The notes below the pieces were generated by a model. The model was given only the letters and a program-made list of their open reading frames with translations. It had not been told where the DNA came from and did not search any database. Shown here piece after piece: positions 843 to 28,205 of a DNA stretch of 28,949 bases; the stretch's first letter is position 1, and each line of letters opens with the position of its first letter. The stretch comes from Candidatus Hodarchaeota archaeon (GTDB lineage Archaea; Asgardarchaeota; Heimdallarchaeia; Hodarchaeales; Hodarchaeaceae): NCBI GenBank assembly GCA_016839785.1, contig JAEOTQ010000237.1, positions 1-28,949 of the forward strand, in the 5' to 3' direction. The translations under genes were made by a program, and so were the position numbers.

Positions 843-848
843 CGCTCA

Positions 849-1148: not shown

Positions 1149-1203
1149 TCTACGAACGCAGCAGAATGAATATTCCCGAAGTATATGAAGGTGAGTTAAA
1201 ATC

Positions 1204-3902: not shown

Positions 3903-3966
3903 TCCATAATTCAACAAAAATCATTAGGACAAAAAGGGAAGAATATGGATTAACAGGAGACATTTT

Positions 3967-5220: not shown

Positions 5221-5359
5221 AACGAAGTGAAGAACGAATTTAATTTTCCGTAGAAGTAAAATTTAACTAATCATGGACAATATGGATATTCATGAGGATT
5301 TAGCTCTGAGTTTACAACTAAACACCCTTATTATTAATTTCTATAAGAGGAAGATATGA

Positions 5360-6666: not shown

Positions 6667-6885
6667 CAGTGATTCATCTCAATAACTCTGAAATATTTAC
6701 TAGGTATTCTTTTAAAAATTTAATTATGCTTAGATATTGAATATATTGGAGGCGATCCCATAGGTTTTAGTAAGTAAAAGGTTATCAGTAATTATATAAC
6801 ACCAACGAAGTCGAAAAGAAATTACGAAACATTCGCACCATTTCGCCTCAAGTTGTCCAAAATATCCAAGATTTGTGAAAAAACT

Positions 6886-7821: not shown

Positions 7822-7850
7822 ATTTTTGGGATATATTCGGCAGAAAAATA

Positions 7851-11385: not shown

Positions 11386-14300
11386 TTGAATATCATGTCG
11401 TCGGAAACAACAGAAGATTCTCTTGTCACAAAAAATGATCTTCATGAATTAGGTGTTGTGGCAACAGAATTACGATCAATTGACCCTACAGTGCAGGTAA
11501 TTTCTTCTTTAAATGAATCGCAAAAATTAATTACACAGATTCAAAAAATAGAAAAGGATTTAACGACTGCAGGCTTCTTTAAGAAAAGAGGTCTAAGCAA
11601 ATCTCTTTCTCAGAAGAAAAACCAGTATAACAAAACTACAGAGAAGCTTTTGAATACAGTTCTTGCTGGTTATAGACGAATTTACTTTGATTTAGCTAAA
11701 AATATTAAGGAAATAGCAAAATTCGTGCCCCAAGAGACAGGTAACATTAAGAATATCCAAATTCCAAGTTTAGAAACAACACTTATTCTAAAATTTAGCA
11801 ATGCAGTGTTAAAGATTTATAATAAGGTAGCAGAAGTACTAAAAGGGAAAAATATTTCTACTTTACTATTTAATCGTGAAATTATTGAATTATATGGAAA
11901 GTTTGTAAATTTTGACGAGGAAAAAATACGTATATCAAGCCAGACATCCAAAGCAAGTATACACGTTATGATAATTTCGGATCTATTGGGCCTTTATAAC
12001 AATCTAGAAGCAGAAAATGCATATTTAAAACAGAGAAGAAAGGGAACAGAGGGGAAAATCCAAGCTGAAATTGTTCGTATGGCCTCTACGTTACATCAAC
12101 ATCTTGGTACTATATCTTCGATCGGAATAAAACTTTCAAGCAATATTGAAACTCTTCAAATACATATACAAGAAATTCAAGGTGAGGCGGATACAAGTAC
12201 ATCTGTAGAAAAGCTTATCGAATTGGAGAAAAGGCTTAGCAGTCTAAGAAATGAGTTTATTAATTCGTTAAGAACGTATGAAATTTCATTAAAGACAGAA
12301 ACTGAAGATCAAATCGGGAGGATTATTCAGCTTGTTGGAGATGACGAAATCGACTCTTTTATAGTTTCAGCACCAAGTATTGATGTTTCTGCCTCTGAAA
12401 TTCCTGTAATCATACAAGATATCGAAAAAATACGATCATGGCATGCAAAATTGATCATAGCCCTGAAGAAACTTGTTAGCACGGCTGAACTAATAAATGC
12501 CGGGAAAACACTACAAGTGATGAAATTTCCTGTTCCAGATGATTTCTTCGACGATGTTAAAAGCATTGAGAAAGAAACTGAGAAAACAAGTGAGCTTCAG
12601 CTGTGGGTGGAGTTAGTGAAACGCTACTATGATTTCCGATTCGCACTTGCTGCTGAATGTCAAAATTATTTCTTCCAAATGCTTGAAAACCCACACATTC
12701 AAGAAGCCATTAGCTTAACTGACGGTCCTCCAATTCCTACTGTGAAAGATTTTGAATCACTTTCACCAGGACAATTAGTCACAAAAGCTCGCGAAATTAA
12801 GGATTGGGAAGCACGCCTGGTTGCATATTTCTCGAAACCAGCCCAGCAAAATTTACGACAGAATCTCATAAGTCTTTACGATACTCGTGAAAGTCTAAAA
12901 GACCTATTAGATGATGATTTGGTCGAAGAAATAGAGAATCTTAGAGAATATAAAAGCGAGGATGAAAAAGAAGTTCGTGATCTCGTTAAAGAAATAGATT
13001 ATTTGAATCAGCTATCAGCGAAAATACGACGTGTAATTTGGGTTGCAATTGATAGTGAAATTCATCCTATCGCTAATCAAATTACCACTCTGGAAACTAT
13101 TCCTCCGAAACTTAAAGCACATGTTCCTAACCTAGAATTAGAAGATTTAAAATCGATTAGAGAAGAAATAGAAATCTCCACTCAAGATAAAGTCAAGAAT
13201 TTACTTGATGAATTTGAGAAGATTACTATCTGGAAATATAAGATTTCAACCCGGATTCGCGAGAATATCAAAGGTATTTCATTTCCTTTAATTCCAATCG
13301 AAACACGATTTGATCTAAGAGAAAAACGCACTGAGATTGTGAAGCTAATTGATAGCCATGCTGAGGCTGGAAACATTGAAGCGATCGTACGTGAATACCT
13401 TTCATTTCTAGAAACAATTGAAGATATGAAAACTGAGATTCTAGTGGAGTTAAAGAAGCAAATTGATGGATTAGAAGCTGTTGATAAAAGATTATTCCGA
13501 TTGATGAAATCTGGAACTAGCAGTGTGAGTTATAGCTCAGAAAGTGAACTTGAGAATTTAGATTATTCTGAAGCATTGACGGAATATTGGCAATTGCTGA
13601 CATTTGTAGACAGAAAAATCTCTACTCTTGCTGAGTTGATGAATCGTGAAATATCATCACATATACAAGATTATTCCAAACTTCCTCCTCAATATTCTGC
13701 CTTTTTTGAGGAACCTCTTGCTCTTATGAATAAAAAACTAGCGGAATTTCAGACTCATAAGGATATCGTACGATTAGTGGATAGTTACGAAAGTTACAGC
13801 CTTGAAAGTATGCAATTAGCTAAGGATTCACTCATAAAATTACATCAGAACCTGTATAATTGGCTAAGAGTCAGTCTTCCTCGAATTCATGAAATTTCTC
13901 CTCTTAGTGATAGTGTTTTTGCCGCGGAGCAGAAGATTTACAACTTTCAACCTGAAGAAGTCTCGCATGAGAGATTAGCCCACGATTTAAGGCAATTGAT
14001 TTACTTCTATGATACTGAAATTGTTGCAGTTTTACTTTCCCATGGAGTATCAAAATCACGAGAAGTGCTTAAAGATGTAAATGACCTCAAGGAAGTAGGT
14101 ATAAACATCATTGAGTATGTTGGCTCTTATATAGAATCTTTCTCGGAGGTAATAGTAAAACATCAGGAAGATGTTCATCTAAGAGAGATTACTGAGGTGT
14201 TTGTGGAAATAGATAAATTGCAAAATGATAATAATGCCTGCAATGCAATTCGTACAACTGGAGAGCGCTATATAGCAGAAATCCAAGATACAATTGAATA

Positions 14301-14904
14301 TTTATTTGGTTCTTTTCAGATTGATCTTCGTGCCGAGGATCGAATCGATTTTGCATATTTAAGTGATTTCCAACGAATCGCTACCAATAATAATGTTCAT
14401 CATTTGACTCAGGCAATCATCAAACTGAATCAAATAAGAGCTGTCGTAGTTGAATTAATGAAAGTAATTGAAAAGGATCGTAATGCGAACTTACAGACCA
14501 AATTAGGAACTCTAGATTATTATTCAAACATTCAAGAGGTCTTCAAGCAATATTCCGATGAAGCATCAGAAAAGATATATCCTTTATCAAAATTACTTGA
14601 AGAACGCGCAGAGTTAATGAATACACATGATTTGCGACTTATATTGAATCTATTCCCAAAAATCGAAAGCCAACGAGAGGAGTGGGAAAAAGTATCAATT
14701 CAATTAAATAGATGGCATAGCGCATTTAGGATGTTTCGTGCTCGCTACTTACCTTCAGAAAACATTGAAGAGAATAAGAGACAATTTAAGGAGATAACGA
14801 AGAAAATAACAGAAACTTATCCCCGTAATAAAGTTATTGGAGCATATTTATCATTAGTAATGAAATTATTTATTGAAATTAAATCTGGTATAGAACTAGA
14901 ATAA
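11386..14904 (+). CDS. Large all-helical / coiled-coil repeat protein
   Basis: 1172-aa ORF rich in E/K/L/I with heptad character; no Walker A or TM segment seen. ATG 11395 is an alternative start. Confidence 0.85.
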   Translation: MNIMSSETTEDSLVTKNDLHELGVVATELRSIDPTVQVISSLNESQKLITQIQKIEKDLTTAGFFKKRGLSKSLSQKKNQYNKTTEKLLNTVLAGYRRIYFDLAKNIKEIAKFVPQETGNIKNIQIPSLETTLILKFSNAVLKIYNKVAEVLKGKNISTLLFNREIIELYGKFVNFDEEKIRISSQTSKASIHVMIISDLLGLYNNLEAENAYLKQRRKGTEGKIQAEIVRMASTLHQHLGTISSIGIKLSSNIETLQIHIQEIQGEADTSTSVEKLIELEKRLSSLRNEFINSLRTYEISLKTETEDQIGRIIQLVGDDEIDSFIVSAPSIDVSASEIPVIIQDIEKIRSWHAKLIIALKKLVSTAELINAGKTLQVMKFPVPDDFFDDVKSIEKETEKTSELQLWVELVKRYYDFRFALAAECQNYFFQMLENPHIQEAISLTDGPPIPTVKDFESLSPGQLVTKAREIKDWEARLVAYFSKPAQQNLRQNLISLYDTRESLKDLLDDDLVEEIENLREYKSEDEKEVRDLVKEIDYLNQLSAKIRRVIWVAIDSEIHPIANQITTLETIPPKLKAHVPNLELEDLKSIREEIEISTQDKVKNLLDEFEKITIWKYKISTRIRENIKGISFPLIPIETRFDLREKRTEIVKLIDSHAEAGNIEAIVREYLSFLETIEDMKTEILVELKKQIDGLEAVDKRLFRLMKSGTSSVSYSSESELENLDYSEALTEYWQLLTFVDRKISTLAELMNREISSHIQDYSKLPPQYSAFFEEPLALMNKKLAEFQTHKDIVRLVDSYESYSLESMQLAKDSLIKLHQNLYNWLRVSLPRIHEISPLSDSVFAAEQKIYNFQPEEVSHERLAHDLRQLIYFYDTEIVAVLLSHGVSKSREVLKDVNDLKEVGINIIEYVGSYIESFSEVIVKHQEDVHLREITEVFVEIDKLQNDNNACNAIRTTGERYIAEIQDTIEYLFGSFQIDLRAEDRIDFAYLSDFQRIATNNNVHHLTQAIIKLNQIRAVVVELMKVIEKDRNANLQTKLGTLDYYSNIQEVFKQYSDEASEKIYPLSKLLEERAELMNTHDLRLILNLFPKIESQREEWEKVSIQLNRWHSAFRMFRARYLPSENIEENKRQFKEITKKITETYPRNKVIGAYLSLVMKLFIEIKSGIELE

Positions 14905-14918
14905 AAGGAAGATCAGAT

Positions 14919-14966
14919 ATGACAATGGAAGAAACAGAAAGCGAAATATTTGCACTTGATCCTTAG
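14919..14966 (+). pseudogene. 15-codon stub resembling the N-terminus of the tubulin/FtsZ-like gene
   Basis: AAGGAAG then ATG, 14 nt after the 1172-aa gene stop. MTMEETESEIFALDP* versus MAIDDQESSEIFAIG at 24744; similarity stops just before the first GTP-binding Gly. Confidence 0.55.
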
Positions 14967-15481
14967 AATTCTTCTTTATCAGCGTGTTTTGTATTTTTGG
15001 ATACTACTTTCCTGCTTATTCTCGTGTCGTAAATCTTACCTAAGGACATAGATTTCGAGGAAATCATCACTTGCGAGTCTATTAGCTTGCATAATACAGT
15101 CTTCACACATCTCTTCCTTGAAAAGTCAGCAGTGGTAATATTTCATCACGTAAGTTACGAAAAAACCATTATACAATGCATACTCACCGAAAAGTGATTT
15201 GAACACAAAAGCGAGTGTTCTCATAAGTAGGAAAGTGACTGACTTTCACCAATCTATTTTGAAGGATGGAAAAGACCACCCCAAAACACATTAAGAGTTA
15301 CTACAAGTCTAAACAGGATGATTCGGAGTTGAGGAGAAATACTACTTGCTATGGCCTGAAAATCGACGAGAATCTCTTTGACTTGTAACCGAGAACGAAT
15401 AATATTGCATAGATTGAAATGTTGAGTCCTCTCGTCAGTGAGTCTTGCATAAGTGTCAAAACCTAATTTATTCTTTTTCAT
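14960..15481 (-). pseudogene. Probable decayed gene coupled to the M50-like gene
   Basis: The 75-aa ORF 15481-15254 overlaps the stop of 16346-15468. Downstream, protein-like fragments continue in shifting frames (MRTLAFVFKSLFGEYALY / WFFRNLRDEILPLL / FKEEMCEDCIMQANRLASDDFLEIYVLR*). Confidence 0.35.
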
Positions 15482-16346
15482 TGTAGAAGGAGGGAAAAAA
15501 CCGCGTTTTCTTAAACGATGACTGTTTCTTTTGCTCCCTACTATCTGGAATCTTGAGTAACACTGGATATTTCAGCTTAGTACTTCTCTTGAAAAATCTA
15601 ACAGTCACGAGTAAGAATGAAAGATAAAATAACGAATAAACTAAGGCTGCAATCAGGGCAGCTACTAAATCACCTTTTGATCGTAATGTCACCTCAACAA
15701 ATATTGAGAAAAATACAACATAAAGCCAGTTAACACAGAATTTTGGAACTAAACCCTGTCTTAGCATAGTATAGATGATCATCATCTGATCTGAAGAACT
15801 AGGCATCAAAGCGTGAAAAAGAACCAATGAGGCGTAGATATGTATTAGGAAACCCATCATTCCTCCTACTTCTATTAACGGTAGTAAAGCTAAATAAACG
15901 ATGAAAAAAGTTAGAGTGTGTTTCCAAGGAGCCATTGCTACCTTTATCATGTCGTCTAAGGTCGTACAAGTACAATAAACGTTTGAACCTTCAGCTCGCG
16001 TATCAATTTCAAAGCGATTATATACTCCGAATTCAATTTGTCTCTTGTCCCTGTTGGAAGGCTCTTTTATATGCCCTTGTTTTTCTTGCTCTCTATTTAT
16101 TTGTTCTTCGATTTCACGCGCCACCGTCATGTGTGCATGTAAGTGAATTAGTCTAAAAGGCCAGGTCAGAAAATCAGCGAGAGGATTTAGGAAAGAAAAT
16201 ATTAGTAATATGCATTTTACAAAGAAATAACTGAAAACAATGAACATTATGGCTTTGAATGGGTCAGATAAATCGAGCTGGCCGATATACCAACCAATAA
16301 AGGATTCTCCTAACGGTTGTAGAAAGTTTTCAAGTAAGGAGATCAT
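15468..16346 (-). CDS. Multi-pass membrane protein, degenerate M50-like/zincin metalloprotease
   Basis: Several hydrophobic segments; HLHAH where HExxH is expected, 'KVAMAP', and 'MPSSSD' as the third-ligand motif. Confidence 0.6.
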   Translation of the reverse strand: MISLLENFLQPLGESFIGWYIGQLDLSDPFKAIMFIVFSYFFVKCILLIFSFLNPLADFLTWPFRLIHLHAHMTVAREIEEQINREQEKQGHIKEPSNRDKRQIEFGVYNRFEIDTRAEGSNVYCTCTTLDDMIKVAMAPWKHTLTFFIVYLALLPLIEVGGMMGFLIHIYASLVLFHALMPSSSDQMMIIYTMLRQGLVPKFCVNWLYVVFFSIFVEVTLRSKGDLVAALIAALVYSLFYLSFLLVTVRFFKRSTKLKYPVLLKIPDSREQKKQSSFKKTRFFPSFYNEKE

Positions 16347-16375
16347 ATTTCTTCATAATATAATTCGAATTCTCT

Positions 16376-16424
16376 CTTAAATATTTGAAAATTCGGCTCT
16401 TTTACATAATTTCAAATTTATAAA
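16376..16424. promoter_or_regulatory. Divergent promoter pair with TTTYRARTWTWTAAR motif
   Basis: TTTCAAATTTATAAA (+, 16410-16424) and TTTCAAATATTTAAG (-, 16390-16376) at TATA distance from the two starts. Confidence 0.6.
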
Positions 16425-16442
16425 TAAAAATACGAATCAATA

Positions 16443-17720
16443 GTGATGAAAGCAACAAATATAGTAACAAGGGGTATACTAAATGCTCACAAGAATTATC
16501 TCAATGGAAAATTATTTCTTGAAGAAAAAAAACAAGAAAATGCTCTAGAATGTTTTTTAAAATCAAAAAATCTATTTCAAGAGGAATTAAATAGGTTATG
16601 TACTTTCGATACACGCTTGATGTGGGAACAAGAACTAAAATTAGTAAATCAAGAAATTTTTAAATTAGAAAAGGGAACTAAGCTAAATCTGGACAAGTTT
16701 ACCGAAGATACAGACTCTAGTTCGAGATTTGATAGGTGGATATCACGGATAAGAGAAGTACACCCAAGATCAGGAACAATGGATACAAATGTTATTGGTT
16801 TGGAATTGGTTAAAGGAACATTAGATAAAGTAATATCATTACCCCTAGAAAGACCTGATATTTGGATAATAAGTCCTTCTCCTCCAAGAAGTATTCTACT
16901 TTATGGAGCACCAGGATGCGGAAAAACACTAATTGTCAAGGTAACAGCTCAAAAAGCAGGTCTTCCCATATATAACATCACCTTAGGAGAATTACTAAGT
17001 AAATGGTTTGGAGAAAGTGAGAAAAAGATAGAATATTTATTTGAAGTTGCATATAAAGAACCTGATGGGTGCATTCTATTCTTTGATGAAATTGATGCCT
17101 TAGTTGGCCAAATGAGCAATGATTCTGATGCAATTAATCGAGTACGGAAAGCGTTTTTGACAGCCTTAGATGGTTATAAAGTACCAAAACCAAATAAAGT
17201 GATTGTTATTGGTTTGACCAATAGGCCTGATTTATTAGACGGAGCTACAATGAGACGGTTCGATAGAAGGGTTTATGTACCTCCTCCTAACTACGACGCT
17301 ATTCTGAAATTGATTCAAAATATTGTAAATAAAACTGACATGAATTTAGATCTATTCTCAGACTCATGGCAGAAAGTAATACATTCCATGCTTGGATTAA
17401 CTGCTGATGAGATATGTAAAATTATTCATGGTGCTATTTGGGAAACAGCAGACAGTATTATTAACCGAGAGGAAGAATTAGGGGAGAAATTCCTGAAAAA
17501 AATTAAAGATCTTTTGTTAGACATGACGCCTTATTTTTGTACATTTGAAGCACTGGAACCATCAGTATTTTTGTTCTTGGATAAACAATATGGATTTCCA
17601 AAGACGAAGGAAGAGGCTTATTGTTGGGAACCATCATTTAATAGCCGAAAACACCGTTTAATTCAACTACACCCCGAACCGAAGGTAATACACAAAAGGA
17701 AATTGTCAAGACGGATTTAA
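16443..17720 (+). CDS. Vps4/CdvC/katanin-clade single AAA+ ATPase with N-terminal MIT/TPR-like helices
   Basis: LLYGAPGCGKT, pore loop SKWFGESEK, FFDEID, TNRP..LD, RRFDRRVYVPPP; N-terminal helical hairpin 'AHKNYLNGKLFLEEKKQENALECF'. ATG 16446 is a likely leaderless start. Confidence 0.85.
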   Translation: MMKATNIVTRGILNAHKNYLNGKLFLEEKKQENALECFLKSKNLFQEELNRLCTFDTRLMWEQELKLVNQEIFKLEKGTKLNLDKFTEDTDSSSRFDRWISRIREVHPRSGTMDTNVIGLELVKGTLDKVISLPLERPDIWIISPSPPRSILLYGAPGCGKTLIVKVTAQKAGLPIYNITLGELLSKWFGESEKKIEYLFEVAYKEPDGCILFFDEIDALVGQMSNDSDAINRVRKAFLTALDGYKVPKPNKVIVIGLTNRPDLLDGATMRRFDRRVYVPPPNYDAILKLIQNIVNKTDMNLDLFSDSWQKVIHSMLGLTADEICKIIHGAIWETADSIINREEELGEKFLKKIKDLLLDMTPYFCTFEALEPSVFLFLDKQYGFPKTKEEAYCWEPSFNSRKHRLIQLHPEPKVIHKRKLSRRI

Positions 17721-17758
17721 AATTCCTGTATTACACTCCTAATTTGATGCGGATGATA

Positions 17759-18460
17759 TTATTTTATATTTAACTTATGTAACAGGTTTTTCTTTAGACT
17801 AGGAGATTTTGTATAAGAAAAGGTGCTTTCAGAAGTTTCAGATTGTTTTTTATTTCGACACTGCTTAGGTATTTCAGGGGAAAGAGTAGGATATTTGTGA
17901 AAAGTATTAGTTAATCCACATTCTTCACTTACCTCTGCAATACTAAGCAGGCGCATTTTGAATCCAGGTATCAGTTCATGCAATACCCCTTGGAAATTTT
18001 CTAGATGTTTACAGGTCTGTTTTAAATAATAGGATTGCTGTTCTTCTCCAAGCTTGGTCCATGGTTGAGCCATCAACAACTCGTAAATCACAAGGTAAAC
18101 TGAACCTTGCTGACTTTCAATATGAATTATGGAGAATTGATCTTGGAATCGTAATCTATCTAAATAATCCTCCGTTTCTACTGTTGAGAAGAATAGGATA
18201 CCTGTGACCGCATATAAAGACTGATTGCTATCTATAAGTAACGTATTTGGTATTGCATCAGCACTCATAAGACTAAGTTCAGCAATTGGTTCTCCTCTAA
18301 TAATCTCGTTTCGATTCAAAATTATTAGATAAAACTCTGCTCCAATGTAACCCAAAATACCTAATAACATTCTCATTAGTTTAAATTGAAACAAAAGCAT
18401 CCCTAGTTCATAAAAAGAAATAAAAACAAATAGCTTCAGGAGCATATCTTTTGATATCAT
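17759..18460 (-). CDS. Membrane-anchored protein (two N-terminal TM helices plus soluble domain)
   Basis: Hydrophobic residues ~7-49; starts 3 nt after the upstream gene's stop. Confidence 0.7.
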   Translation of the reverse strand: MISKDMLLKLFVFISFYELGMLLFQFKLMRMLLGILGYIGAEFYLIILNRNEIIRGEPIAELSLMSADAIPNTLLIDSNQSLYAVTGILFFSTVETEDYLDRLRFQDQFSIIHIESQQGSVYLVIYELLMAQPWTKLGEEQQSYYLKQTCKHLENFQGVLHELIPGFKMRLLSIAEVSEECGLTNTFHKYPTLSPEIPKQCRNKKQSETSESTFSYTKSPSLKKNLLHKLNIK

Positions 18461-18463
18461 ACT

Positions 18464-19510
18464 TCATCTATCTCCTAATTTTTTTATTTGTTTTCCCTCA
18501 TTGGTTTCCTGCTCCTTGTAGATTACATAAAGGGGTACTCCGAAGAGAACTCCAGTGAAGAAAATAGCCATTATCTCCTCAGGGATGGGGTGGTCAGGAA
18601 TATCTATTCTAGACCAAAAATTTGGTATATAATTAGTTTGAAAGTCGACTGTGTGAACTGAAATTTTAATCGTGTATTCACCGTTGTCACTTGTTTCACT
18701 GGGGAAAATTTTTATTCCTATTTCTGTGAAATTCTTATCTAGGATTAGTGTGAATCGTATGAGTGGATTTAACTGTGGTATGGTACTCAAAGTGGTACCT
18801 ATCAAAGTCAATGTTTCTATCTCAATATTGGTATTCAGAAGCAATGTTGAATACAACTTAGCATTAATGGGTAGACGCGTTAGAAATATCGAATTCAGAA
18901 CGAATCGTCGTTTTTGAAAAAATGATAAGTCTTTAAGTCGGATTTTGAATGTATCAGGCATAATTAATATATCAGATTCTGCAATTTCCAATATTTCCCT
19001 AATTATTATTTCATTAAAATCGAATTGTGCATTTATTCCGATGATACTCGGAAAATACTCCAGTGTGACATCTATTCGAAGATGCATCGAAGGGACAAAT
19101 GAGGATAGACCCTCTAATGGAAGAATTAGTACATTTTCTAGATTAAAATCATAATAGACATCGTAAATATGCTCTGTGTTACAAAATACACGCTCCCAAC
19201 TATATTCATCAATCTGCACGCAGAGGGTGATCTTTTTCAATTCAGAACCTGCATTTACTACAGTAAATAGTAAAAAGATATCACCACCGTAGAATTCGTA
19301 TTGGAAGGTCAAGGGTTGAATCCTAATACTAGTAATTTGTTGAGTAACATGGACTTGTTGAGATATACCTAGATCTCTATCCATGAACGGAGATTGTGAC
19401 ATCGTGGGAATAGCCGTTACAGTTTTAACTGAGGTAAATGTAAATAATCGAAGATTTATAAAGAGAAAAATAAGTAAAAGGAAAATACTATATGGTTGAT
19501 GTCGACTCAA
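18464..19510 (-). CDS. Predicted surface protein: signal peptide, beta-rich ectodomain, C-terminal TM anchor
   Basis: N-terminal hydrophobic stretch SIFLLLIFLFINL, alternating beta-strand patterns, C-terminal IMAIFFTGVLFGVPLYVIY plus charged tail; ATGA overlap with the hydrolase gene. Confidence 0.75.
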   Translation of the reverse strand: MSRHQPYSIFLLLIFLFINLRLFTFTSVKTVTAIPTMSQSPFMDRDLGISQQVHVTQQITSIRIQPLTFQYEFYGGDIFLLFTVVNAGSELKKITLCVQIDEYSWERVFCNTEHIYDVYYDFNLENVLILPLEGLSSFVPSMHLRIDVTLEYFPSIIGINAQFDFNEIIIREILEIAESDILIMPDTFKIRLKDLSFFQKRRFVLNSIFLTRLPINAKLYSTLLLNTNIEIETLTLIGTTLSTIPQLNPLIRFTLILDKNFTEIGIKIFPSETSDNGEYTIKISVHTVDFQTNYIPNFWSRIDIPDHPIPEEIMAIFFTGVLFGVPLYVIYKEQETNEGKQIKKLGDR

Positions 19511-20151
19511 TTCACTCCTCTCTCCTGAAATACAGATTTTAATAAAATATCAAAATCGTAACCATGGATTTCGTCAATATGTAATGGATCTCTTAAATTA
19601 TCAATAAGAATCAGTAAACAAGCAAGAACTACAACCCCTTTACATAATAGGACAATTCTATGGTTGATTCCACGTTCTTCTCTGCTTAATAAACTACTAT
19701 GAAGACGTAATTTTAATCTTGGTCTCGTATGCTGATTAAATAGATAGTTTTTGCGTCTATCCTGAGAAAATAGAGTGGATGTAAAGCCAATGGGAATTCC
19801 CTCCTCACTGAATATATCAAGAATCAAATGGGATCCAATTGAAAGAAATATCCCTCTTACAAGTAAACAGAATATCTGATTTTCGGTATTGACCCCTAAA
19901 AAGACAAGGAATAGAAATAATAAAATTATAGGGTTATGCGTAAGCGGATGTCTACATCTCTCTGCACAAGTTTTCATTTTTTGATCCGTACAGAAATACT
20001 TGTCCAGAATATTAGGAAAAACGCTAATAAAACTCAGGCCTACAGCAAAGGGGAGAAATAGAATCTGAATCATAGGTTTTTGCATATTGAGGAAAAGAAT
20101 ATCCAGCAAAATGAGTGAGAAAGCAAACCAGAAATGAGTACGATTCTCTAT
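19507..20151 (-). CDS. YdjM-like membrane metal-dependent hydrolase
   Basis: The frame stays open 14 codons upstream of TTG 20109 to ATA-GAG-AAT-CGT-ACT-CAT (xENRTH, the family's N-terminal TH motif), preceded by GAGGT. FPNILD, RHPLTHN, SHLILD..GIP. Confidence 0.75.
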   Translation of the reverse strand: MENRTHFWFAFSLILLDILFLNMQKPMIQILFLPFAVGLSFISVFPNILDKYFCTDQKMKTCAERCRHPLTHNPIILLFLFLVFLGVNTENQIFCLLVRGIFLSIGSHLILDIFSEEGIPIGFTSTLFSQDRRKNYLFNQHTRPRLKLRLHSSLLSREERGINHRIVLLCKGVVVLACLLILIDNLRDPLHIDEIHGYDFDILLKSVFQERGVN

Positions 20152-20161
20152 CGCTACAACC

Positions 20162-20251
20162 TCAATATTGATTGTGTTTGGTCTTTATAAATTCGAAATC
20201 ACAATTCGTGGATTTTGAATATTTAAGGTGGAATTAGGATCAATATTGATC
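20162..20251. promoter_or_regulatory. Symmetric divergent promoter pair with TCAATATTGA palindromes
   Basis: TTTCGAATTTATAAA (-, 20198-20184) and TTTTGAATATTTAAG (+, 20213-20227), each followed after exactly 12 nt by TCAATATTGA (20171-20162; 20240-20249). Confidence 0.65.
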
Positions 20252-20262
20252 AATGGTTTTGA

Positions 20263-21954
20263 GTGAGCGAATTGGGAACTGTAACAACACCTCCAACGAG
20301 AGTAAAGATTTCGTTATACCAAGATGACGTTTTAGTAGTTGAAACCAAGAGGTCTACGAACTTACTAGTAACAGATATCACCTTAGTATCAGTGATAGGA
20401 ATAATAGTTTATAACACAAGCAGTTTTTCATTAATCAGAAAGGTTATTGAAAATAACACCAGAGTCTCAATGTGGAGAGCTAATAGAATCGTACAAAAAA
20501 TTACCAAACATAACAAAATCCCTGTAGAAACATTATACAGTCATAATTTGATGATCATCAAAGAATCAATGTGTGGTTACGGATCGATACCAAAATTTTT
20601 GATGGAAAGAGCATATGATAGCTTAATAGAAAAAAGAACGGCGGTATTGAGCACTCTTTTGAATGGGTTTCAACTTAAAATCCTCTCAAAGAACTTATTG
20701 AAGAGAGCTTTTATTCATAAAAAAACAATCAAAGAATTATGGCAAGAAATTCCATACGATTTGGAGTTCGTCCGATCAGTCGCCGAATTGGAACGGGTAC
20801 CAAAACGAATAGTACCTTCACTGCCATTCAGCAATGGGAACATCAGAATTCCGATTGGTAGGTTATTTCTGAACTCGCAACGAGAAGTTGGATTTAATAT
20901 ACTTCCAAAACTAGTCATAATGGGAGGATCTGACCATAAACTTGCGATAGGAACATTACAGAGCTTCATTAAAACTGTGACGGTGAGAGGAGAAAAAGTT
21001 ATTATCATTGACCTAGGAAATGAGCTGGGTGGATTAAACGAAGCAACGAGTAGTGAGTCCAATCCCAATCTGCAGCTGAAGGAATTTCATATAGGAAGGA
21101 ATTTTCTTCTCAATCTGTTTAAGGTAGATATTCCTACTTCGCAAGAAAATCCGATGAGTAGGATGGTTTTTCAGGCAAATTCCATTGCCAATATTTTAGG
21201 TTATGCAAGTGATTCCACCGAAGTAATGTCCCATCTATCCTTATTGAAAACGAAGGTACTAGATTCGATCCAGAAACATTCGTCAAAGGATTATACACTA
21301 GCTCAATTCGTTGAATCAGAGGTGTTCGCAAAGCCAACATCTGAGTTTGAATTTTCAATTATAGAGCAACTAAGCGCGGAATTGAGTATTTTTGCAGGAT
21401 TTGACCATTTGAATCACATAGAGTTCGATCAAGAATATGATTTCTATCTCGATCCAAGTCCAGGAATAACGCTTTTCCATTTTCCTAACCAAATTTCTCC
21501 AATTAAACGTGTAACATTCGCTTTCCTCCTACAAAAAATCGGAATGAGGTGTGACCCAAAAACAGTAGTTGTCATTACAAATGCATCCCAGATGTTAAAA
21601 AATACTGAAGAAAATTTGCGAAATAGAGGTAATACATTATACGAGGAAACAATAGGGAGATATTGTGAACAGATAACCCGAACAGGATGTTTAACCCTAG
21701 TTACAAGTTCTTTTGCAAAACTTCATCCTGATATCAAAGAAATGAAAAGCAGTGTGATCTCCTTAAAGATGGTAGATCCTCAGGATAGGAAATGGTTAAT
21801 CGAGAGGTTTGCCCTAAATCGATATTTAGATAATCCAAATGATTTCTTGGAGAGTTTGGACGGAGAAGGATTGCTTTTTAGGCATGATATACCGCATACG
21901 GTTGATCATTATATTCCTTATACCCTGGAACCAATATTAGAGCAGATTTATTAA
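20263..21954 (+). CDS. HerA/VirB4/FtsK-superfamily (DUF87-like) protein with inactivated Walker motifs
   Basis: Motif order preserved: IPIG, LVIMGGSDHKL (Walker A site, no GKT), VIIIDLGNE, LNLF, VVVITNASQM (Walker B site, no DE), LTLVTSS (usually TQ), ISLKMVDPQD, L.GEGLL. Confidence 0.7.
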   Translation: MSELGTVTTPPTRVKISLYQDDVLVVETKRSTNLLVTDITLVSVIGIIVYNTSSFSLIRKVIENNTRVSMWRANRIVQKITKHNKIPVETLYSHNLMIIKESMCGYGSIPKFLMERAYDSLIEKRTAVLSTLLNGFQLKILSKNLLKRAFIHKKTIKELWQEIPYDLEFVRSVAELERVPKRIVPSLPFSNGNIRIPIGRLFLNSQREVGFNILPKLVIMGGSDHKLAIGTLQSFIKTVTVRGEKVIIIDLGNELGGLNEATSSESNPNLQLKEFHIGRNFLLNLFKVDIPTSQENPMSRMVFQANSIANILGYASDSTEVMSHLSLLKTKVLDSIQKHSSKDYTLAQFVESEVFAKPTSEFEFSIIEQLSAELSIFAGFDHLNHIEFDQEYDFYLDPSPGITLFHFPNQISPIKRVTFAFLLQKIGMRCDPKTVVVITNASQMLKNTEENLRNRGNTLYEETIGRYCEQITRTGCLTLVTSSFAKLHPDIKEMKSSVISLKMVDPQDRKWLIERFALNRYLDNPNDFLESLDGEGLLFRHDIPHTVDHYIPYTLEPILEQIY

Positions 21955-21989
21955 CATAGGAAGGACTCGCTCTCCTCTAATGAAGAAAA

Positions 21990-22026
21990 TTTTGAGTTTA
22001 TAAGTTTCAATTAGTATTGTTATTGA
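21990..22026 (+). promoter_or_regulatory. Promoter with the same 15-mer motif
   Basis: TTTTGAGTTTATAAG (21990-22004), then TTGTTATTGA after 12 nt; ATG at 22033. Confidence 0.55.
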
Positions 22027-22067
22027 ATATTAATGGAAGATCATGATTCTGAGGGGGAAGAACTTCG

Positions 22068-24389
22068 TTGAATGATGACGAACAAACCCAAACAAAACAA
22101 TTGGAAGATCAGAAAAGGAAGCAAAAAGAAGAGGAAAATGAGGACTCCAGAGAGTCAGAAAAATTAGACATATTGATGGAAGAGTACATGGACCAGATAC
22201 TAATAGAAGAAGAAAGTAAACCTTTACAAATCAGTGAAGAAGAGGATAAAAATGAAGAGACATCAATTGAAGTGGAGAGAAGGGAAAAGGAAGAAGAAAT
22301 AAGCGTAGAACTGATGAGGAGCACAGAAAAGGAGAAAACAGAAGTAAATTTTCAAGAGGAGGTCGAAGAAGTAGAAAGAGAGAAAGAACAAGAGGTGTTA
22401 CGGGAGGAGTACGAAGATCAAATACTGATGAGCAAGGGAAACACCGAAGAAAGTGTTAATGTTTTACAGGAAGAAAAAATTAGTAATCCAGAAGAAGAAG
22501 AGCAGTTAAAGCGTGAAACAGAAAATTTATTGAATGAAAAATATCAAACTCAGTATATTATCAGTGAAGAAGATATTGTTGAAAATCTAGGTGTAAAAAA
22601 GGAAAGCAGGGAGCATGAGATTGAGAAAACAATGGCGCAAAGGGAGAATTTAGAGGAAATCAAATCCGACGTTAAAAATAGTCAAGATATAAATTCGTTA
22701 ATTAAAGAATTAAACACACAACTTGAAACACGAGATCATTTGGACTCTAGTACCTATAGATTACTAACCAACCTTCATGATGAGGGTACCTATCCAAATA
22801 TTGCTTTTGTGTACAAAAGAGATGGGAGGAAAACAGTAGAACAACTCAATAGACACTTATATGATAAGCTCATAGATAATCAGAGATTAGGGAATTTTAG
22901 ATTAGAATGGCAACGATTCTGGTTTGAAGGCCTAGGTCAGATTGAACAGACAGAACATGGAAGAAGGATATTTTTACTGGATTTATCCAAAGAAGAAGAA
23001 CTCCCAACAAGCATGCGTAGAATTTTCTTGGCAAAGAATACGCATACTTGGAATACACTGGTACCAACGAAACGAGAATTACATAGCATGAATATAAGAG
23101 AATTTATCGATATTTTATTTGGAAAACGAGTGTCATCAGCGGATTTCGAAAATGTAAAGGACTTTACTTACCAGAAAAAAATGAATAATGTGTGGAGAGA
23201 GTTCCAGAGGGTATATAAGAAAGATTTCGATCTAAAAACCACGAAAAGACCTGCATTGTTTGCTTTGAAGCCCGAGTACACAAGAGAAAGCATCGAACAT
23301 ACTTTAATAGGAACATTCTGGAAGTATTATCATGGGCTAGACCGAATTGGGAGGCGAAATATGAAACAATGGGGATACAATAACTTACTGCAATTAATGA
23401 AAAATAAAGCCACAGGCGTTTATCCAACTATCGTCGATCCCAATTACATTGGTCAAAAGTTTGTTGTAAGAGTAGTAAACAAGGGGAGGGCATTTAAACG
23501 CTTGTTAGGTGAACTAGATGAGATAAAAGAAACTGACCATGGAAAAGTAATCGATAGAATATATCAGTCTTGGATCATTGACAACGAAATTCTTCACTCC
23601 AAGGTAATTGATGGATTGATGTGGGGCGTAAAAGAGGCACGATCAACTCACTATATTAAATTTGATAGCATTGCTCATTTAATGAATGAAAAAAACACTT
23701 ATGGAATCAATGCCGTACTAGAAGCATTTTTTGAAAATAAGAATGTCCTAGACTCCTTAAATACAGACTTAAACCAAAAATTTCGAGCTAGATCAGTGTG
23801 TACTTCCTCTGGGTATGCTAGAATTAATTCAGGTGCCTTAAGTACTGCGTATCCTGACCTGAAAATTCACACTGAAAAACCAATAAACGTGCAAATCAAG
23901 GATTTAGGTAAGTGTTTTGACCAAAATAAAAAAGAATTAGTTATATATGATCAATTTAAATCGTTTTTCGGGAAGTCAGATAATTTTGAAAACATTACTC
24001 TCCATCTCATTAATGGTGTGGATTTAACAAGTGTGTATGACGTGAAATCTCATCCGAATCTGACACAAAACAATGTAGGAATTATTACTATTGGTATTTG
24101 GGATGATACTGAAGGGATTAATAAGTTTGGAGAACTCTTTAGCGCACTCAGAATAGCTCAGGATTCTGGATATACTGACAAAGAGGCATTTGATACAGTA
24201 GTAAAATACATTGATGGAACAGGCCAGTCCTTTGACAAAACCGATGAGAATACGCTAAGAAAACTTCAAGGATTGTGGTCTAATGATCCTGCAAACCTAA
24301 TACTGAATGTCATTGAAGTATTCGGGGACAATTTTCAAGAGACCTCTGTGAACAGCATTGTTTCAGATACAACAAAAAAAATTATTTGA
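22068..24389 (+). CDS. Large protein with Glu-rich low-complexity N-terminus and globular C-terminal region (possible PD-(D/E)xK nuclease)
   Basis: First ~200 aa are E/K-rich; candidate motifs PDLKIHTEKPINVQIK and VDLTSVYDVK. Start uncertain (out-of-frame ATG at 22033). Confidence 0.75.
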   Translation: MNDDEQTQTKQLEDQKRKQKEEENEDSRESEKLDILMEEYMDQILIEEESKPLQISEEEDKNEETSIEVERREKEEEISVELMRSTEKEKTEVNFQEEVEEVEREKEQEVLREEYEDQILMSKGNTEESVNVLQEEKISNPEEEEQLKRETENLLNEKYQTQYIISEEDIVENLGVKKESREHEIEKTMAQRENLEEIKSDVKNSQDINSLIKELNTQLETRDHLDSSTYRLLTNLHDEGTYPNIAFVYKRDGRKTVEQLNRHLYDKLIDNQRLGNFRLEWQRFWFEGLGQIEQTEHGRRIFLLDLSKEEELPTSMRRIFLAKNTHTWNTLVPTKRELHSMNIREFIDILFGKRVSSADFENVKDFTYQKKMNNVWREFQRVYKKDFDLKTTKRPALFALKPEYTRESIEHTLIGTFWKYYHGLDRIGRRNMKQWGYNNLLQLMKNKATGVYPTIVDPNYIGQKFVVRVVNKGRAFKRLLGELDEIKETDHGKVIDRIYQSWIIDNEILHSKVIDGLMWGVKEARSTHYIKFDSIAHLMNEKNTYGINAVLEAFFENKNVLDSLNTDLNQKFRARSVCTSSGYARINSGALSTAYPDLKIHTEKPINVQIKDLGKCFDQNKKELVIYDQFKSFFGKSDNFENITLHLINGVDLTSVYDVKSHPNLTQNNVGIITIGIWDDTEGINKFGELFSALRIAQDSGYTDKEAFDTVVKYIDGTGQSFDKTDENTLRKLQGLWSNDPANLILNVIEVFGDNFQETSVNSIVSDTTKKII

Positions 24390-24743
24390 CACCTTTTCCA
24401 CTACTCTTATCTTGATAAAAATGTTTCGAAGGAAAGGTAATATTCCATTCTTTCCCCTAAGAGATTTATTAAGGTATTCGGTAAATTGGTAAAAAATCGT
24501 TTCCTCTGATCTTATTCTCATGTTATTAAATCTTATAATGACTGAATGCTTAAAGTAATTGAGAAAAATATTTCAAAACATTTATCTAATTCGGAAATAG
24601 TGTTGAGATTAATGAATTTCTTTGCTTAAAAAAAGAGTTAAAAACCCTCGGCATGCTAATATGCAGGGTTTATTATCATTAATCCTTAAATCGTTGATAA
24701 AGATTAAATTAGAAGTCAGATCAAATCAGTAGGTATAAAGAAA

Positions 24744-26117
24744 ATGGCAATAGACGATCAAGAATCTTCAGAAATCTTTGCGATCGGAATCGGCGAATGT
24801 GGAAGCAATTTAGTAGGGAGCTATTTAGCGAAATCCAAAAAAGGAGAACTTCCAGCACGCATACGTGAATTCTTAGTGATGAATACGGATAGGGGAGATT
24901 TATTAAAAGCACGAAAAAAATACTCAATCTCATCAAAGCGGACCTTACTCTACTCTGATGCAGAAATTGGAGTGGGTGGAAAATTCTCTGCAGGGTATGA
25001 ATCAGTAATTAATTCTGAGGACATTATCTTAAACCAGTTACAGGCTTTGGGATATGAAGGAATCAGTGGTTTTTGCATTTTTACAAGTTTTGGAGGAGGA
25101 ACTGGTTGTGGAGGGACTCCAGCATTAATTCGCTTACTACGAAAGAGGTTTGCAGAACAAGAAAAACGAAAGATATTCATCTACGTATTTGGAGTTCTCC
25201 CATTTGTAAACCAATCATCTGAAGCTGTTAATAGCGTCTGGGCACTGTCAAAACTTCTTCGATTACAATTAGAGGAAGGAAACATGGGTCCTGATCTTAT
25301 TCTTCTTCTTTCAAATAATACTATGCTGAGTCGCGTATTAAGTATGCAAAGAGGAGAAGCAGCTGATTTAATTACACGAGAAAAAGGACTGGATCTCACA
25401 GCTTTAGATAGCAATGTAACTAGACCGAATGTATTAGGTCAAACTGAAGCACCACTTCCTGTTCAAATGGAAGAAGCTTTCGTTGAACTAATTAATCCAT
25501 TAGCACTTGAGTCTATTGCAGAAATGCTTTCACCTGGGGTTCCAGAACTAGGTAAAGAGGTTTTACCTACAACTGATATTGGAGATTTTGCGCTTAAATT
25601 AGATAGTGTAGTAGTTCCAGCTATGTTCGATGATTTATCTATCTTTCCTGAAGTGGGAGATGTAGGAAATCAATTAGGAGCAGCAGTTGAGTATACAGCT
25701 GCACATTGCAGCCTTACTAATATGGGGAACAATCCTGCTGCTTCATCCGTATTTTCCGTATTAAGTGGACCTAAAGAGATTGCTCGAGTTGAATTCGACC
25801 CCTTATTGAAAAAAGCGCTCAGTCCTTTTCTAGCTAAGGGGGCAAGCATTTCTCCCACTTATTGTGCCTATGATGATGAAAAGGCACGAGCTTCTCTATT
25901 GTTATTATTCGGTTTACCACGAGTACCAGAATTATATGATATATTAGAAGAAGCCAAGTCGTTGATTCAATTACATAGTGGGGATTCAGAATTGAAACAG
26001 CACTGGTTTAAGAGATCAAAAGGGACAACAAAACAGGAATTAGAAAATGCTGTCAGTGATCTGGAAAAATTGTTTGGCTATTATATTAAACCAGATCAAG
26101 ACCAGGTAAATAAGTGA
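24744..26117 (+). CDS. Divergent tubulin/FtsZ-superfamily GTPase (CetZ-like grade)
   Basis: T1 GIGECGSNL, T2 MNTD, T3 GVGGKFSAG, signature SFGGGTGCGGTP (GGGTGCGG core at 25092-25115), GVLP, LSNN, T7-like TTDIGDF, C-domain LLLFGLP. Confidence 0.92.
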   Translation: MAIDDQESSEIFAIGIGECGSNLVGSYLAKSKKGELPARIREFLVMNTDRGDLLKARKKYSISSKRTLLYSDAEIGVGGKFSAGYESVINSEDIILNQLQALGYEGISGFCIFTSFGGGTGCGGTPALIRLLRKRFAEQEKRKIFIYVFGVLPFVNQSSEAVNSVWALSKLLRLQLEEGNMGPDLILLLSNNTMLSRVLSMQRGEAADLITREKGLDLTALDSNVTRPNVLGQTEAPLPVQMEEAFVELINPLALESIAEMLSPGVPELGKEVLPTTDIGDFALKLDSVVVPAMFDDLSIFPEVGDVGNQLGAAVEYTAAHCSLTNMGNNPAASSVFSVLSGPKEIARVEFDPLLKKALSPFLAKGASISPTYCAYDDEKARASLLLLFGLPRVPELYDILEEAKSLIQLHSGDSELKQHWFKRSKGTTKQELENAVSDLEKLFGYYIKPDQDQVNK

Positions 26118-26161
26118 TTTAGGTTCATTTAAGTAGATAAGTAAAGAGGTAGTTAATCAGT

Positions 26162-27169
26162 ATGAATTTTAGTGAAGATCAAAATCCCTCAAAAGGTCCT
26201 TCTACCGATCAGAGGCCTCTCGATGTTCTAGAAAACAAAATAGATTTTTTAATAAATTTGAATTTAACTAGTTTAAATTTAATTACTGCTCTGAGTTCAT
26301 GTATTAGTGATAGAGATGGTATTCCTGATGGAGTACGCAAGGAATTAAGATCAATCCATTCAGCTTTACCAAATCTATTAACTTTTGACAATGCAAAGCC
26401 CGTTTTTATGGATCTTGTGGAAAAATTAAACGCCAAGCTAGCTGAAATTATTGGAACACCCGATACTACTAATATTATTGAACAAGCTTATGATACTTCC
26501 ATCCCAGTTACATCAAATAAAGAAATAATGAAAGGTTTCAATAGGTATGAAAGTTTGATTGATAAATGGGGAATAATTGAGTCCATTGAAGGACTCATGA
26601 GTTCATATAGCACCTTATCAAATTTAGCTTTTCCTACATATTATCTTCACGGGTGCAAAGAGATTCAAAGATACACATTAACACAAGAAATTTCGAATCC
26701 CAATTCTCATGAAATTATCCAATTTCCATGTCTAAAACTTAAGGATTTGATCTTTAAGCTATTGCGAGAAGCACCTGCAGCTCGTTTATTACAGAATTTG
26801 AAAAAAATGTTTCCCCTGCAAAGTAAGATAGAATTGGATGCTTCAGAAGAATCAAATATTCAAGAAATTGTGAAAAAATACATTTCAAATATCTCTGATT
26901 TCCTTAATGGAAAAAGAACATTACAGGATACCATACGAATAAGTACATCAGTTCTTCAGCAATATAATCTAGGGTCTGGAGATTTAGAATCTCGGATTCC
27001 GAATGTATCTTTTTCTGTTGTGAAAGATATCCAAAAAGAATTTCAACTTGCTAGAGGAAATGATTTTAAACAATTTGTCTATTCAGAAACTATTGTTCTA
27101 ATTCATCGCTTAAACGATGCTATTCTACGAAATGATAGGTTTATAGTATTACTGCGACGACTTAAGTGA
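26162..27169 (+). CDS. Helical hypothetical protein downstream of the tubulin-like gene
   Basis: 335-aa ORF, GAGGT upstream, 44 nt after the previous stop; no motif recognised. Confidence 0.8.
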   Translation: MNFSEDQNPSKGPSTDQRPLDVLENKIDFLINLNLTSLNLITALSSCISDRDGIPDGVRKELRSIHSALPNLLTFDNAKPVFMDLVEKLNAKLAEIIGTPDTTNIIEQAYDTSIPVTSNKEIMKGFNRYESLIDKWGIIESIEGLMSSYSTLSNLAFPTYYLHGCKEIQRYTLTQEISNPNSHEIIQFPCLKLKDLIFKLLREAPAARLLQNLKKMFPLQSKIELDASEESNIQEIVKKYISNISDFLNGKRTLQDTIRISTSVLQQYNLGSGDLESRIPNVSFSVVKDIQKEFQLARGNDFKQFVYSETIVLIHRLNDAILRNDRFIVLLRRLK

Positions 27170-27326
27170 TATCTACTACAATTTATACGAAATTCTTGAA
27201 TTAGTATAGGTTTATATTATTCACTTATCGCTAACAAAAATAGAAAGCTTCTTGTAGATACACCTTTAGTAAAATTAACACAATCTGTAATTCAACAATA
27301 TTGGAGTAGAAGAGCGAAGTGAGAAC

Positions 27327-28205
27327 TTGGGAATCGAAGAAAGCCTGAAACAAATTATAGATATAAATGTTAAGATCTATCAAATGCTTCAACAGAGCCA
27401 GGATGTTTCACAAATCCGAACAGAGCTCGAAAGCTCTATTCGTAATTTTTCTGATGTGGCCTTGGCGATAGATGTTAAATTCCAAGAAAGCGCTCGCACT
27501 ATTATTCGACATGTGCAAGAATCATATGAAGGACTCAATCCAGAACTTCTCGCCTCTATTGCTCAGCTACCTCCTGTTCTTGCCACATTGGAGTCTTCGT
27601 TGTCCGAAATAGAAACTACTTTCAAAAATACAGAAGTAAAAATTAAAGAAGATTTGAGATCAATACGAGCAGCATATGTTGAAGATGTACTCGGGAGAAT
27701 GAACACATTAGCTGAGAGTATATCAGAATCAGTCAGCGTTTCCACCGAGAAGACAAGTAATCTTTATGAAGCAAGTATTACACAGTTTGTACAGATTTCT
27801 GAAGATTTAAAGACAATGGAAAGTCACCTAAATTCCCTAATAGAGAATCAGACTGATCAACTAGCTACGGTTGCAGAACTTCGAGATCGAGTCAGTGCAA
27901 TTATACAGGTCGAATTGGCATCATTACGTGATCACATAAATATAAATCTAGAAAATTCTGTCAATGAGTTAAAAACCTCTGTTACAGAGCGACTTATGGT
28001 ACAAGATGGAACTATTCAAAGACTATCTCAAACAGTAGAAGGATTAAATCAATCAGTTTCTAATTTACCTGAAGTAATAAAGGGGGAGATTAATTTAGCT
28101 GTAGATACGAAGTTAATTAGCACAATTGAAAAAATGGAGAAGGAGAATAAAAAAACAACCGCTTTAGTTGTGGGTTTAATACGAAAACTACAAGATGGAT
28201 CATGA
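27327..28205 (+). CDS. Long coiled-coil protein
   Basis: 292 aa of near-continuous heptads, no TM segment; TTG start. Confidence 0.8.
   Translation: MGIEESLKQIIDINVKIYQMLQQSQDVSQIRTELESSIRNFSDVALAIDVKFQESARTIIRHVQESYEGLNPELLASIAQLPPVLATLESSLSEIETTFKNTEVKIKEDLRSIRAAYVEDVLGRMNTLAESISESVSVSTEKTSNLYEASITQFVQISEDLKTMESHLNSLIENQTDQLATVAELRDRVSAIIQVELASLRDHININLENSVNELKTSVTERLMVQDGTIQRLSQTVEGLNQSVSNLPEVIKGEINLAVDTKLISTIEKMEKENKKTTALVVGLIRKLQDGS

Follow-up and report, generated by a model that had tools for sequence, protein, structure and literature searches.

The window analysed here, the whole 28,949-nucleotide (nt) stretch of contig JAEOTQ010000237.1 from Candidatus Hodarchaeota archaeon (assembly GCA_016839785.1), carries a locus that is probably an Asgard-wide three-gene module. 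It consists of the genes for a giant helical repeat protein, for a tubulin-superfamily GTPase of the Asg.Tub group and for a helical protein of about 335 amino acids (aa); a fourth gene has been added in this genus, and in the window the module is split by an insert. An earlier examination, made from the DNA letters by themselves (the sequence-only reading), had claimed four co-oriented genes around an inserted block and interpreted them as a distinct filament system with scaffold partners or partners like microtubule-associated proteins (MAPs). The four open reading frames (ORFs) were found at 11386, 24744, 26162 and 27327, all on the forward strand, and a likely alternative start of the giant ORF is the ATG at 11395. 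All four genes are under purifying selection, the ratio of nonsynonymous to synonymous substitution rates (dN/dS) against the two closest relatives being 0.03-0.12, values which are approximate because dS is about 1.0-1.5. A filament system with dedicated partners is a well-founded inference and not a demonstration, since gene linkage and family membership are its basis.

The window proteins were mapped onto 14 loci from other species of the genus and onto 20 loci from seven other families of the phylum, and their distribution was surveyed in 400 Asgard genomes (22 of the genus, 2 of the sister family and 376 others). The genome carrying the window is labelled G000 and its relatives bear the other G labels. 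A full-length giant gene abuts the GTPase gene in 12 of the 14 genus loci, with gaps of 9-52 nt, and the order in these 12 loci, contig permitting, is Arf, Cdc48, MoCF, giant, GTPase, 335-aa, 292-aa and a convergent 245-aa gene. The two exceptions are G002, which has a different insert of 4.3 kilobases (kb) in the same place, and G016 (locus L025, 12507-14486), in which the giant gene is reduced to its C-terminal 609 residues. The MoCF, Cdc48 and Arf genes are absent from the 12 kb fetched for L025, and a rearrangement or an assembly join may explain this.

A synteny survey across Asgard genomes had been proposed along with the sequence-only reading, and the linkage was borne out well beyond the genus. 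A giant-related ORF of 873-1029 aa was found directly upstream of the GTPase gene in 19 of the 20 distant loci, and a relative of the 335-aa protein (293-412 aa) directly downstream of it, on the same strand, in all 20. The median gap is 14 nt on both sides of the GTPase gene (n = 38 and n = 35). Between families the giant proteins are only about 20% identical and the flanking genes differ, whereas the order, strand and spacers of the trio are kept. In G368 (L067, about 3950-6445) the giant gene appears to be split into short ORFs of 207, 160 and 287 aa, and the GTPase and 335-aa genes are intact. In many distant loci a gene of about 468 aa follows the trio; it encodes an enzyme similar to ADP-forming acyl-CoA synthetases and was treated as an unrelated neighbour. 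A stretch of about 8.2 kb separates the GTPase and 335-aa genes in one distant family (L082, on G387 contig C69, 2143-10357). It holds HEAT-repeat, TPR and esterase-like genes and two ORFs without known family; here too the module is interrupted, between other genes than in the window.

Relatives of the GTPase are present in 126 of the 400 phylum genomes in a patchy manner, nearly every member of some families having one and none being found in others (0/135 and 0/31). A wider search of 185,579 species genomes gave 125 relatives, and the best 80 of these 125 are all titled Asgard or 'uncultured archaeon', those at 81-96% identity bearing titles such as Candidatus Hodarchaeota or Heimdallarchaeota archaeon. 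The 335-aa family was found by profile search in 123 of the 400 genomes, always as a single gene and in the same families as the GTPase. Manual comparison of the two presence tables gave 121 genomes with both genes, 272 with neither, five with the GTPase gene only (four of these being fragments or contig ends) and two with the 335-aa gene only. Presence and absence thus agree in 393 of the 400 genomes, and both genes occur in 121 of the 128 that have either.

A second pair was seen on contig C79 of G000 (L040), where a giant-like gene (5436-8864, reverse strand) lies 12 nt upstream of a GTPase gene (4077-5423, reverse strand). The giant-like protein has 1142 aa and is about 23% identical to the giant of the window, and the GTPase is 52-54% identical to that of the window. 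There is no 335-aa gene at L040, and a convergent gene for a Gtr1/RagA-type GTPase is found there instead. Paralogous pairs of a giant-like and a GTPase gene recur in several genomes of the genus.

The GTPase matches Pfam Tubulin (PF00091) over residues 10-171 with 61.7 bits against a cut-off of 33. In an alignment of 22 family members, the motif GGGTGCG at residues 117-123, the signature of loop T4, is invariant in all 22, with Cys in the position where GGGTG(S/T)G usually has Ser or Thr. The N-terminal G-x-G-x-x-G and the string T-D-(L/I)-(A/G)-D are invariant or nearly so, and the window version of the latter, T-D-I-G-D-F, aligns with T-D-L-G-D-F of Protein Data Bank (PDB) entry 3zid in a stretch of alignment that is not significant alone. 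D278 and D281 are also invariant in 22 of 22 members, and presumably form the acidic pair of loop T7. In the tubulin/FtsZ superfamily this pair serves GTP hydrolysis across the polymer interface. When PDB entries were ranked with the family profile, 4b46 (E 1.7e-13), 3zid and 4b45, which we take to be CetZ proteins, came first, followed by beta/gamma-tubulins, OdinTubulin, BtubA and AtubA. The likeness to CetZ of Euryarchaeota lies in these best matches among solved structures and in the tubulin-type GGGTG signature; the GTPase differs in that the E-values are modest even at their best and concern the N-terminal domain only, and to our knowledge CetZ has no conserved giant helical neighbour.

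The protein is not a canonical FtsZ by the NCBIfam model TIGR00065, to which it gives 31.1 bits against a cut-off of 295.2, and a separate, far better Pfam Tubulin match exists in the same genome on contig C180 (E 1.1e-45). The sequence-only reading had likened the GTPase to the FtsZl1/FtsZl2 families, and this comparison had to be given up, because Pfam Tubulin_2 (PF13809), which we take to be the FtsZl1 family (Makarova and Koonin 2010), reaches only 21.8 of the 27 bits required and covers no more than 52 residues. The GTPase belongs instead with Asg.Tub, a group named in 2023 as the Asgard-only 'CetZ-like group in Asgardarchaeota' (Santana-Molina, del Saz-Navarro and Devos, PMC9871819). According to the parts of that paper used here, the phylogenetic position of Asg.Tub is unstable, between CetZ and the tubulins and outside the supported canonical CetZ node; it is flanked by unknown genes that encode coiled-coil regions, the contexts of the CetZ-like groups being called 'unrelated', and its C-terminal hidden Markov model (HMM) is reported to match no other group. 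Consensus positions 95-119 of this HMM were compared with the window GTPase by eye (25 of its 237 positions), and an ungapped match was obtained at 12 of the 25, C-S-L, G, P, A and S-V among them. Judging by sequence, the window GTPase is taken as a member of the group. The published description agrees in an Asgard-only paralogue occurring in several classes, in CetZ-like indels and structural relatives and in coiled-coil neighbours; it differs in that the parts used here (PMC9871819) name no trio of giant, GTPase and 335-aa genes and give no function. A search of the full-text literature under the name Asg.Tub or for 'CetZ-like' Asgard proteins found no functional or bench study among the papers listed, which were the naming paper of 2023 and others that do not deal with the group. 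The claim of a distinct tubulin-superfamily GTPase with conserved neighbours of its own has thus held, with membership in Asg.Tub and a trio that extends across the phylum.

The partners had been claimed to be helical, and the giant and the 335-aa protein are indeed predicted to be all-alpha. The AlphaFold model of the giant has about 45 helices, with a predicted local distance difference test score (pLDDT) of 83.9 and a predicted template modelling score (pTM) of 0.40, the latter low, as would be expected of loosely coupled domains in a chain. Internal repeats of about 100-115 aa were detected with hhalign, residues 251-365 matching 366-640 with a probability of 96.5% and residues 126-250 matching 641-770 with 84.5%. 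Residues of about 361-640 are an addition of some 250-280 residues that is seen only in this order, being absent from other Asgard families, and that by its sequence arose from the repeat before it; conservation is highest in the last 130 residues. No Pfam family, EzrA and Spectrin included, was matched at E <= 0.01 by the giant or by two of its distant homologues, and a profile search of the PDB gave only weak matches to apolipoprotein A-I (E 0.0014). The top Foldseek match of the model is a chain of the flagellar doublet-microtubule entry 8glv (E 5.7e-3, probability 0.63), with dynein-arm entries among the next rows, and VIA-align gave generic helical bundles only (Z <= 11.1); no EzrA or spectrin entry is among the matches listed in these fold searches.

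In the model of the 335-aa protein (pLDDT 80.9) the C-terminal domain (about residues 125-335) is predicted with confidence, and the helical bundle at the N-terminus less so. D134, P158, P205, L209, G271, E276, R278 and K335 are invariant in 20 sequences of the family. Nothing significant was found in the PDB profile search, nothing at E <= 0.001 with Foldseek and no usable match in the Atlas; VIA-align returned only generic N-terminal bundles (Z <= 8.9) and barely covered the C-terminal domain. Prediction of a complex of the GTPase with the 335-aa protein gave scores of 0.00 and 0.02 against a mark of 0.32, in a run made without controls that speaks neither for nor against binding.

The claim of three partners stood in part, since phylum-wide linkage to the GTPase applies to the giant and the 335-aa protein and the 292-aa module gene is confined to one genus. 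This gene, separated from the trio by about 157 nt, was detected in 20 of the 22 genus genomes, in neither of the two sister-family genomes and as two marginal matches (E about 4e-4) among the other 376, and by sequence comparison it is a single-genus addition. Its product has sub-threshold Pfam matches to the helical families Baculo_PEP_C, EzrA (19.4 bits against a cut-off of 39.6) and Apolipoprotein. A descent from a piece of the giant or of the 335-aa protein was considered and rejected, hhalign giving probabilities of only 3.9% and 1.3%. The giant, the 335-aa protein and the 292-aa module protein match no Pfam or NCBIfam family above cut-off, a Pfam scan found no DNA-binding domain in any of the partners, and a hydropathy scan found no membrane-spanning segments in the four module proteins.

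The block between the giant and GTPase genes had been recognised as an insertion from the sequence, and both the 12 abutting genus loci and a metagenome contig agree with this. Homology to the two closest uninterrupted relatives (G004 and G014) ends at 14953 and resumes at 24771, and a contig of metagenome run X4 joins 14954 to 24783, skipping 9828 bases; the block has hardly any depth in this run. An assembly artefact can be dismissed as well, since a contig of run X1, 100% identical to the window, spans the right junction (24376-25096) and a contig of run X2, diverged by 73 differences, spans the left one (14489-15301). Run X4 comes from another study and runs X1-X3 may include the source sample of the window, independent support for the junctions being confined to X4 and the diverged X2.

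The ATG of the resident GTPase gene is still present 14 nt past the stop of the giant gene, as in the relatives, and the original gene start runs through the 11-nt core GAAATATTTGC (14943-14953) into the DNA of the insert. A direct repeat of the core lies at the right junction, GAAATCTTTGC (24771-24781). The right end of the insert has an AGGT-type ribosome-binding site of its own and, beginning with the ATG at 24744, a divergent copy of GTPase codons 1-12, and joins the resident GTPase sequence at this second core. The insert thus makes up for the displaced gene start and leaves the GTPase protein complete, with an N-terminus that can be aligned with those of orthologues. In G002 the break follows the same core and the replacement start encodes a different peptide. 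Terminal inverted repeats were not found at the insert.

Among the seven ORFs of the element, no match to a family of recombinases, nucleases or viruses was found. The single-domain AAA ATPase has its nearest relatives in D2 domains of the Cdc48/VCP type (E about 1e-64; PDB VCP-like ATPase and p97), is weakly like the anti-phage ATPases IetA/IteA, gives 143 bits against a cut-off of 650 with NCBIfam CdvC, and is encoded by a gene distinct from that of the chromosomal Cdc48 at 7851-10157. A sub-threshold YdjM match of the 200-aa ORF is the sole family match of the three small ORFs, and a PDB match of the 563-aa protein to HerA is insignificant (E 0.17). Only generic AAA matches were obtained for the element proteins in PHROG and PADLOC, none in a phage collection, and no relative of the 773-aa protein was seen among viral contigs. 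This protein has no match in Pfam, PHROG, PADLOC, the PDB (family profile included) or the Atlas, and no nuclease motif or fold was identified in its family, whose core has N216, P243, N244, W285 and D305 among its invariant residues in seven sequences. Genes like it were found in 6 of the 22 genus genomes, and in G000, G002 and G013 such a gene immediately precedes that of the GTPase. In G002 the family member has 1,202 aa (L076:355-3963, reverse strand), with part of the core repeated near the C-terminus, and is the sole cargo of the insert. The 773-aa gene is a candidate mobility gene, because it is the only gene common to the inserts of these three genomes. All seven element genes also occur in the same order on contig C128 of G004 (L083, 9,776 bp) at 74-76% DNA identity. 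The module of G004 is itself uninterrupted, and the ends of L083 lie inside the element. This copy might be episomal, might sit elsewhere in the genome or might belong to a variant within the population.

From these sequence features the block is read as a site-specific integrative element, mobilised by an enzyme of unrecognised type for which the 773-aa family would be the candidate. Some integrative elements enter the ends of genes, such as tRNA genes, and carry a replacement for the end they displace. The short direct repeat, the displaced gene end, the element-borne replacement and the empty sites recall these elements; here, in contrast, a protein-coding cytoskeletal gene is entered at its 5' end and no tyrosine or serine recombinase is recognisable. 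The main rival for the insert is a homing-type selfish gene, in which the 773-aa protein would cut the empty allele and repair would copy the insert in, dragging along a cleavage-resistant gene start. A G002 insert with only the 1,202-aa relative of this protein, replacement starts that differ strongly in DNA from the resident ones and the lack of an integrase in Pfam, PHROG and PADLOC would all fit such a gene. However, the resident 35-nt start persists at the left junction with a second version at the right one and the 11-nt core as a direct repeat, and two versions of the gene start with a repeated core are the footprint of site-specific recombination, not of gap repair. Six further genes in the 9.8-kb form, found also on the separate contig in G004, and the failure to identify a nuclease motif or fold in the 773-aa family speak against homing as well, and we regard it as the less likely mechanism.

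On the favoured reading the module is probably a filament system, and its three genes would be co-transcribed, as their spacing suggests, and translationally coupled. The GTPase would polymerise with GTP, by analogy with its relatives CetZ, FtsZ and tubulin. The giant, with a putative series of about ten helical-bundle repeats of roughly 100 residues, could serve the polymer as an elongated scaffold, a ruler or a cross-linker, and the 335-aa protein may be an adaptor or regulator physically associated with it. In the window, a 9.8-kb mobile element has integrated after GTPase codon 12 at the 11-nt core and brought in a replacement start, and the GTPase gene would now have to be transcribed from within the element. 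Two known systems offer parallels. EzrA, a regulator of FtsZ, is reported to have five triple-helical-bundle repeats (PMC4243239); the giant would likewise be an elongated protein of tandem helical bundles of about 100 residues that is paired with a tubulin-family polymer. The giant, by contrast, lacks a Pfam EzrA match and a membrane anchor, has twice the length of EzrA and is encoded by the gene just before that of the GTPase; the resemblance is one of architecture and not of homology. In Prosthecobacter, as summarised in the consulted part of PMC9871819, the genes for BtubA and BtubB are followed in one operon by that for BtubC, a helical-repeat, kinesin-light-chain-like protein that stabilises the filament, an arrangement that recalls the module. 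BtubAB are true tubulins forming a heterodimer, whereas the present module has a single GTPase and two unrelated partners, so that the parallel is an analogy of layout and not homology.

The same genes could also encode a complex of the GTPase with its scaffold that forms no filament, the GTPase acting as a switch or small oligomer on the giant as a platform, for instance in membrane remodelling or trafficking. The locus does lie among trafficking-type genes (Roadblock/LC7, folliculin/longin-like, Arf-family and Cdc48), the paralogous GTPase gene adjoins one for a Gtr1/RagA-type GTPase, and the position of Asg.Tub in the published phylogeny cited above (PMC9871819) is called unstable. Yet these neighbours are kept only within the genus, the T7-type acidic pair is invariant in every aligned member and the characterised relatives all polymerise, which makes a complex of this kind improbable. 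A DNA-segregation system of the TubZ/PhuZ kind, with the helical partners as centromere adaptors, appears very improbable. TubZRC loci are small operons of a tubulin-like GTPase gene and adaptor genes; the layout of the module resembles them and mobile DNA is present at the locus. This DNA, however, has inserted into the module and is not its carrier, and the module has a stable chromosomal context in the genus, between the MoCF/Cdc48 genes and the 245-aa gene. Nor was a DNA-binding domain found in the partners with Pfam, a match in the phage collection or a relative of the 773-aa protein among viral contigs, and the GTPase has its closest PDB relatives in 3zid, 4b46 and 4b45 and not in TubZ. 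Least credible of all is a linkage that reflects inherited synteny without functional or physical interplay. The module genes do tolerate inserts, of 9.8 kb here and of about 8.2 kb in G387, but order, strand and spacers of about 14 nt have been kept between giants that share only a fifth of their residues and among differing flanks, and the presence of the GTPase and 335-aa genes agrees almost throughout the phylum.

Several observations weigh against the reading of the locus as a coupled filament module disrupted by an integrative element. The giant and GTPase genes are both intact in the window though 9.8 kb apart, which means that the module can do without tight coupling, at any rate for a short time. 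The paralogous pair without a 335-aa gene indicates that the small partner is not obligatory for every member of the family. Among the known families that bind tubulin or FtsZ, none is matched by the partners, and 'scaffold' and 'adaptor' are guesses from the shape of predicted models. As to the element, comparison of its seven ORFs with Pfam, PHROGs and PADLOC revealed no tyrosine or serine recombinase.

The remaining genes of the window surround the module (features are collected in Table 1). Upstream are genes for Roadblock/LC7, folliculin/longin-like, Nre, IF-2B-family, Arf-family GTPase, Cdc48 and MoCF-domain proteins, an Asgard-type gene set. Eukaryote-like trafficking genes are found at 351-7821, namely a Roadblock/LC7-like gene (sub-threshold), the gene for a folliculin/longin-like protein of 438 aa and that for the Arf-family GTPase, which has 322 aa and a long C-terminal extension. 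Downstream and convergent to the module is the 245-aa gene (28210-28947, reverse strand), which has no known family and is in place in 14 of the 14 genus loci.

Table 1. Features of the module and of the inserted element in the window.
Feature	Positions	Strand	Description
Giant helical repeat protein	11386-14904	+	ORF, 1172 aa; first gene of the trio
Left-over original start of the GTPase gene	14919-14966	+	ATG at 14919, stop at 14966; aligned with G004 and G014
Inserted element	14954-24781		9,828 bp; seven ORFs on both strands; flanking direct repeat
292-aa membrane protein (element)	15468-16346	-	43 19-residue Kyte-Doolittle windows >1.6; no Pfam family
Single-domain AAA ATPase (element)	16443-17720	+	425 aa; Pfam AAA, E 4.1e-35
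Three ORFs (element)	17759-20109	-	233, 348 and 200 aa, each with hydrophobic segments
563-aa protein, no known family (element)	20263-21954	+	No Pfam, PHROG or PADLOC match
773-aa orphan protein (element)	22068-24389	+	Acidic N-terminus; core about residues 205-470
Tubulin-superfamily GTPase, taken as Asg.Tub group	24744-26117	+	ORF, 457 aa; Pfam Tubulin match
335-aa helical protein	26162-27169	+	ORF; third gene of the trio
292-aa module protein, probably helical or coiled coil	27327-28205	+	ORF; genus-restricted fourth gene

Polymers of the tubulin family in Asgard archaea bear on the origin of the eukaryotic cytoskeleton, and work on them has so far centred on FtsZ, OdinTubulin and the mini-microtubules of AtubAB. 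Asg.Tub is present in about a third of the sampled Asgard genomes, and the trio is a defined three-protein system fit for expression and reconstitution. As a tentative and more far-reaching possibility, the module might represent a third Asgard cytoskeleton of the tubulin family beside FtsZ and the true tubulins, present also in the Hodarchaeota-type lineage of the closest relatives, in which an Asg.Tub polymer would need a giant spectrin-like rod and an adaptor of new fold, all encoded as one unit, and which would be the target of a family of mobile elements specialised on the codons of the GTP loop by means of a protein of no known recombinase or nuclease family. If this is true, the module would be a prokaryotic counterpart of microtubule-associated scaffolds, a filament with built-in associated proteins. 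The insert is a gene-specific mobile element in Asgard archaea that rebuilds its target gene, and it may be of use as a natural indicator of where the module can be uncoupled.

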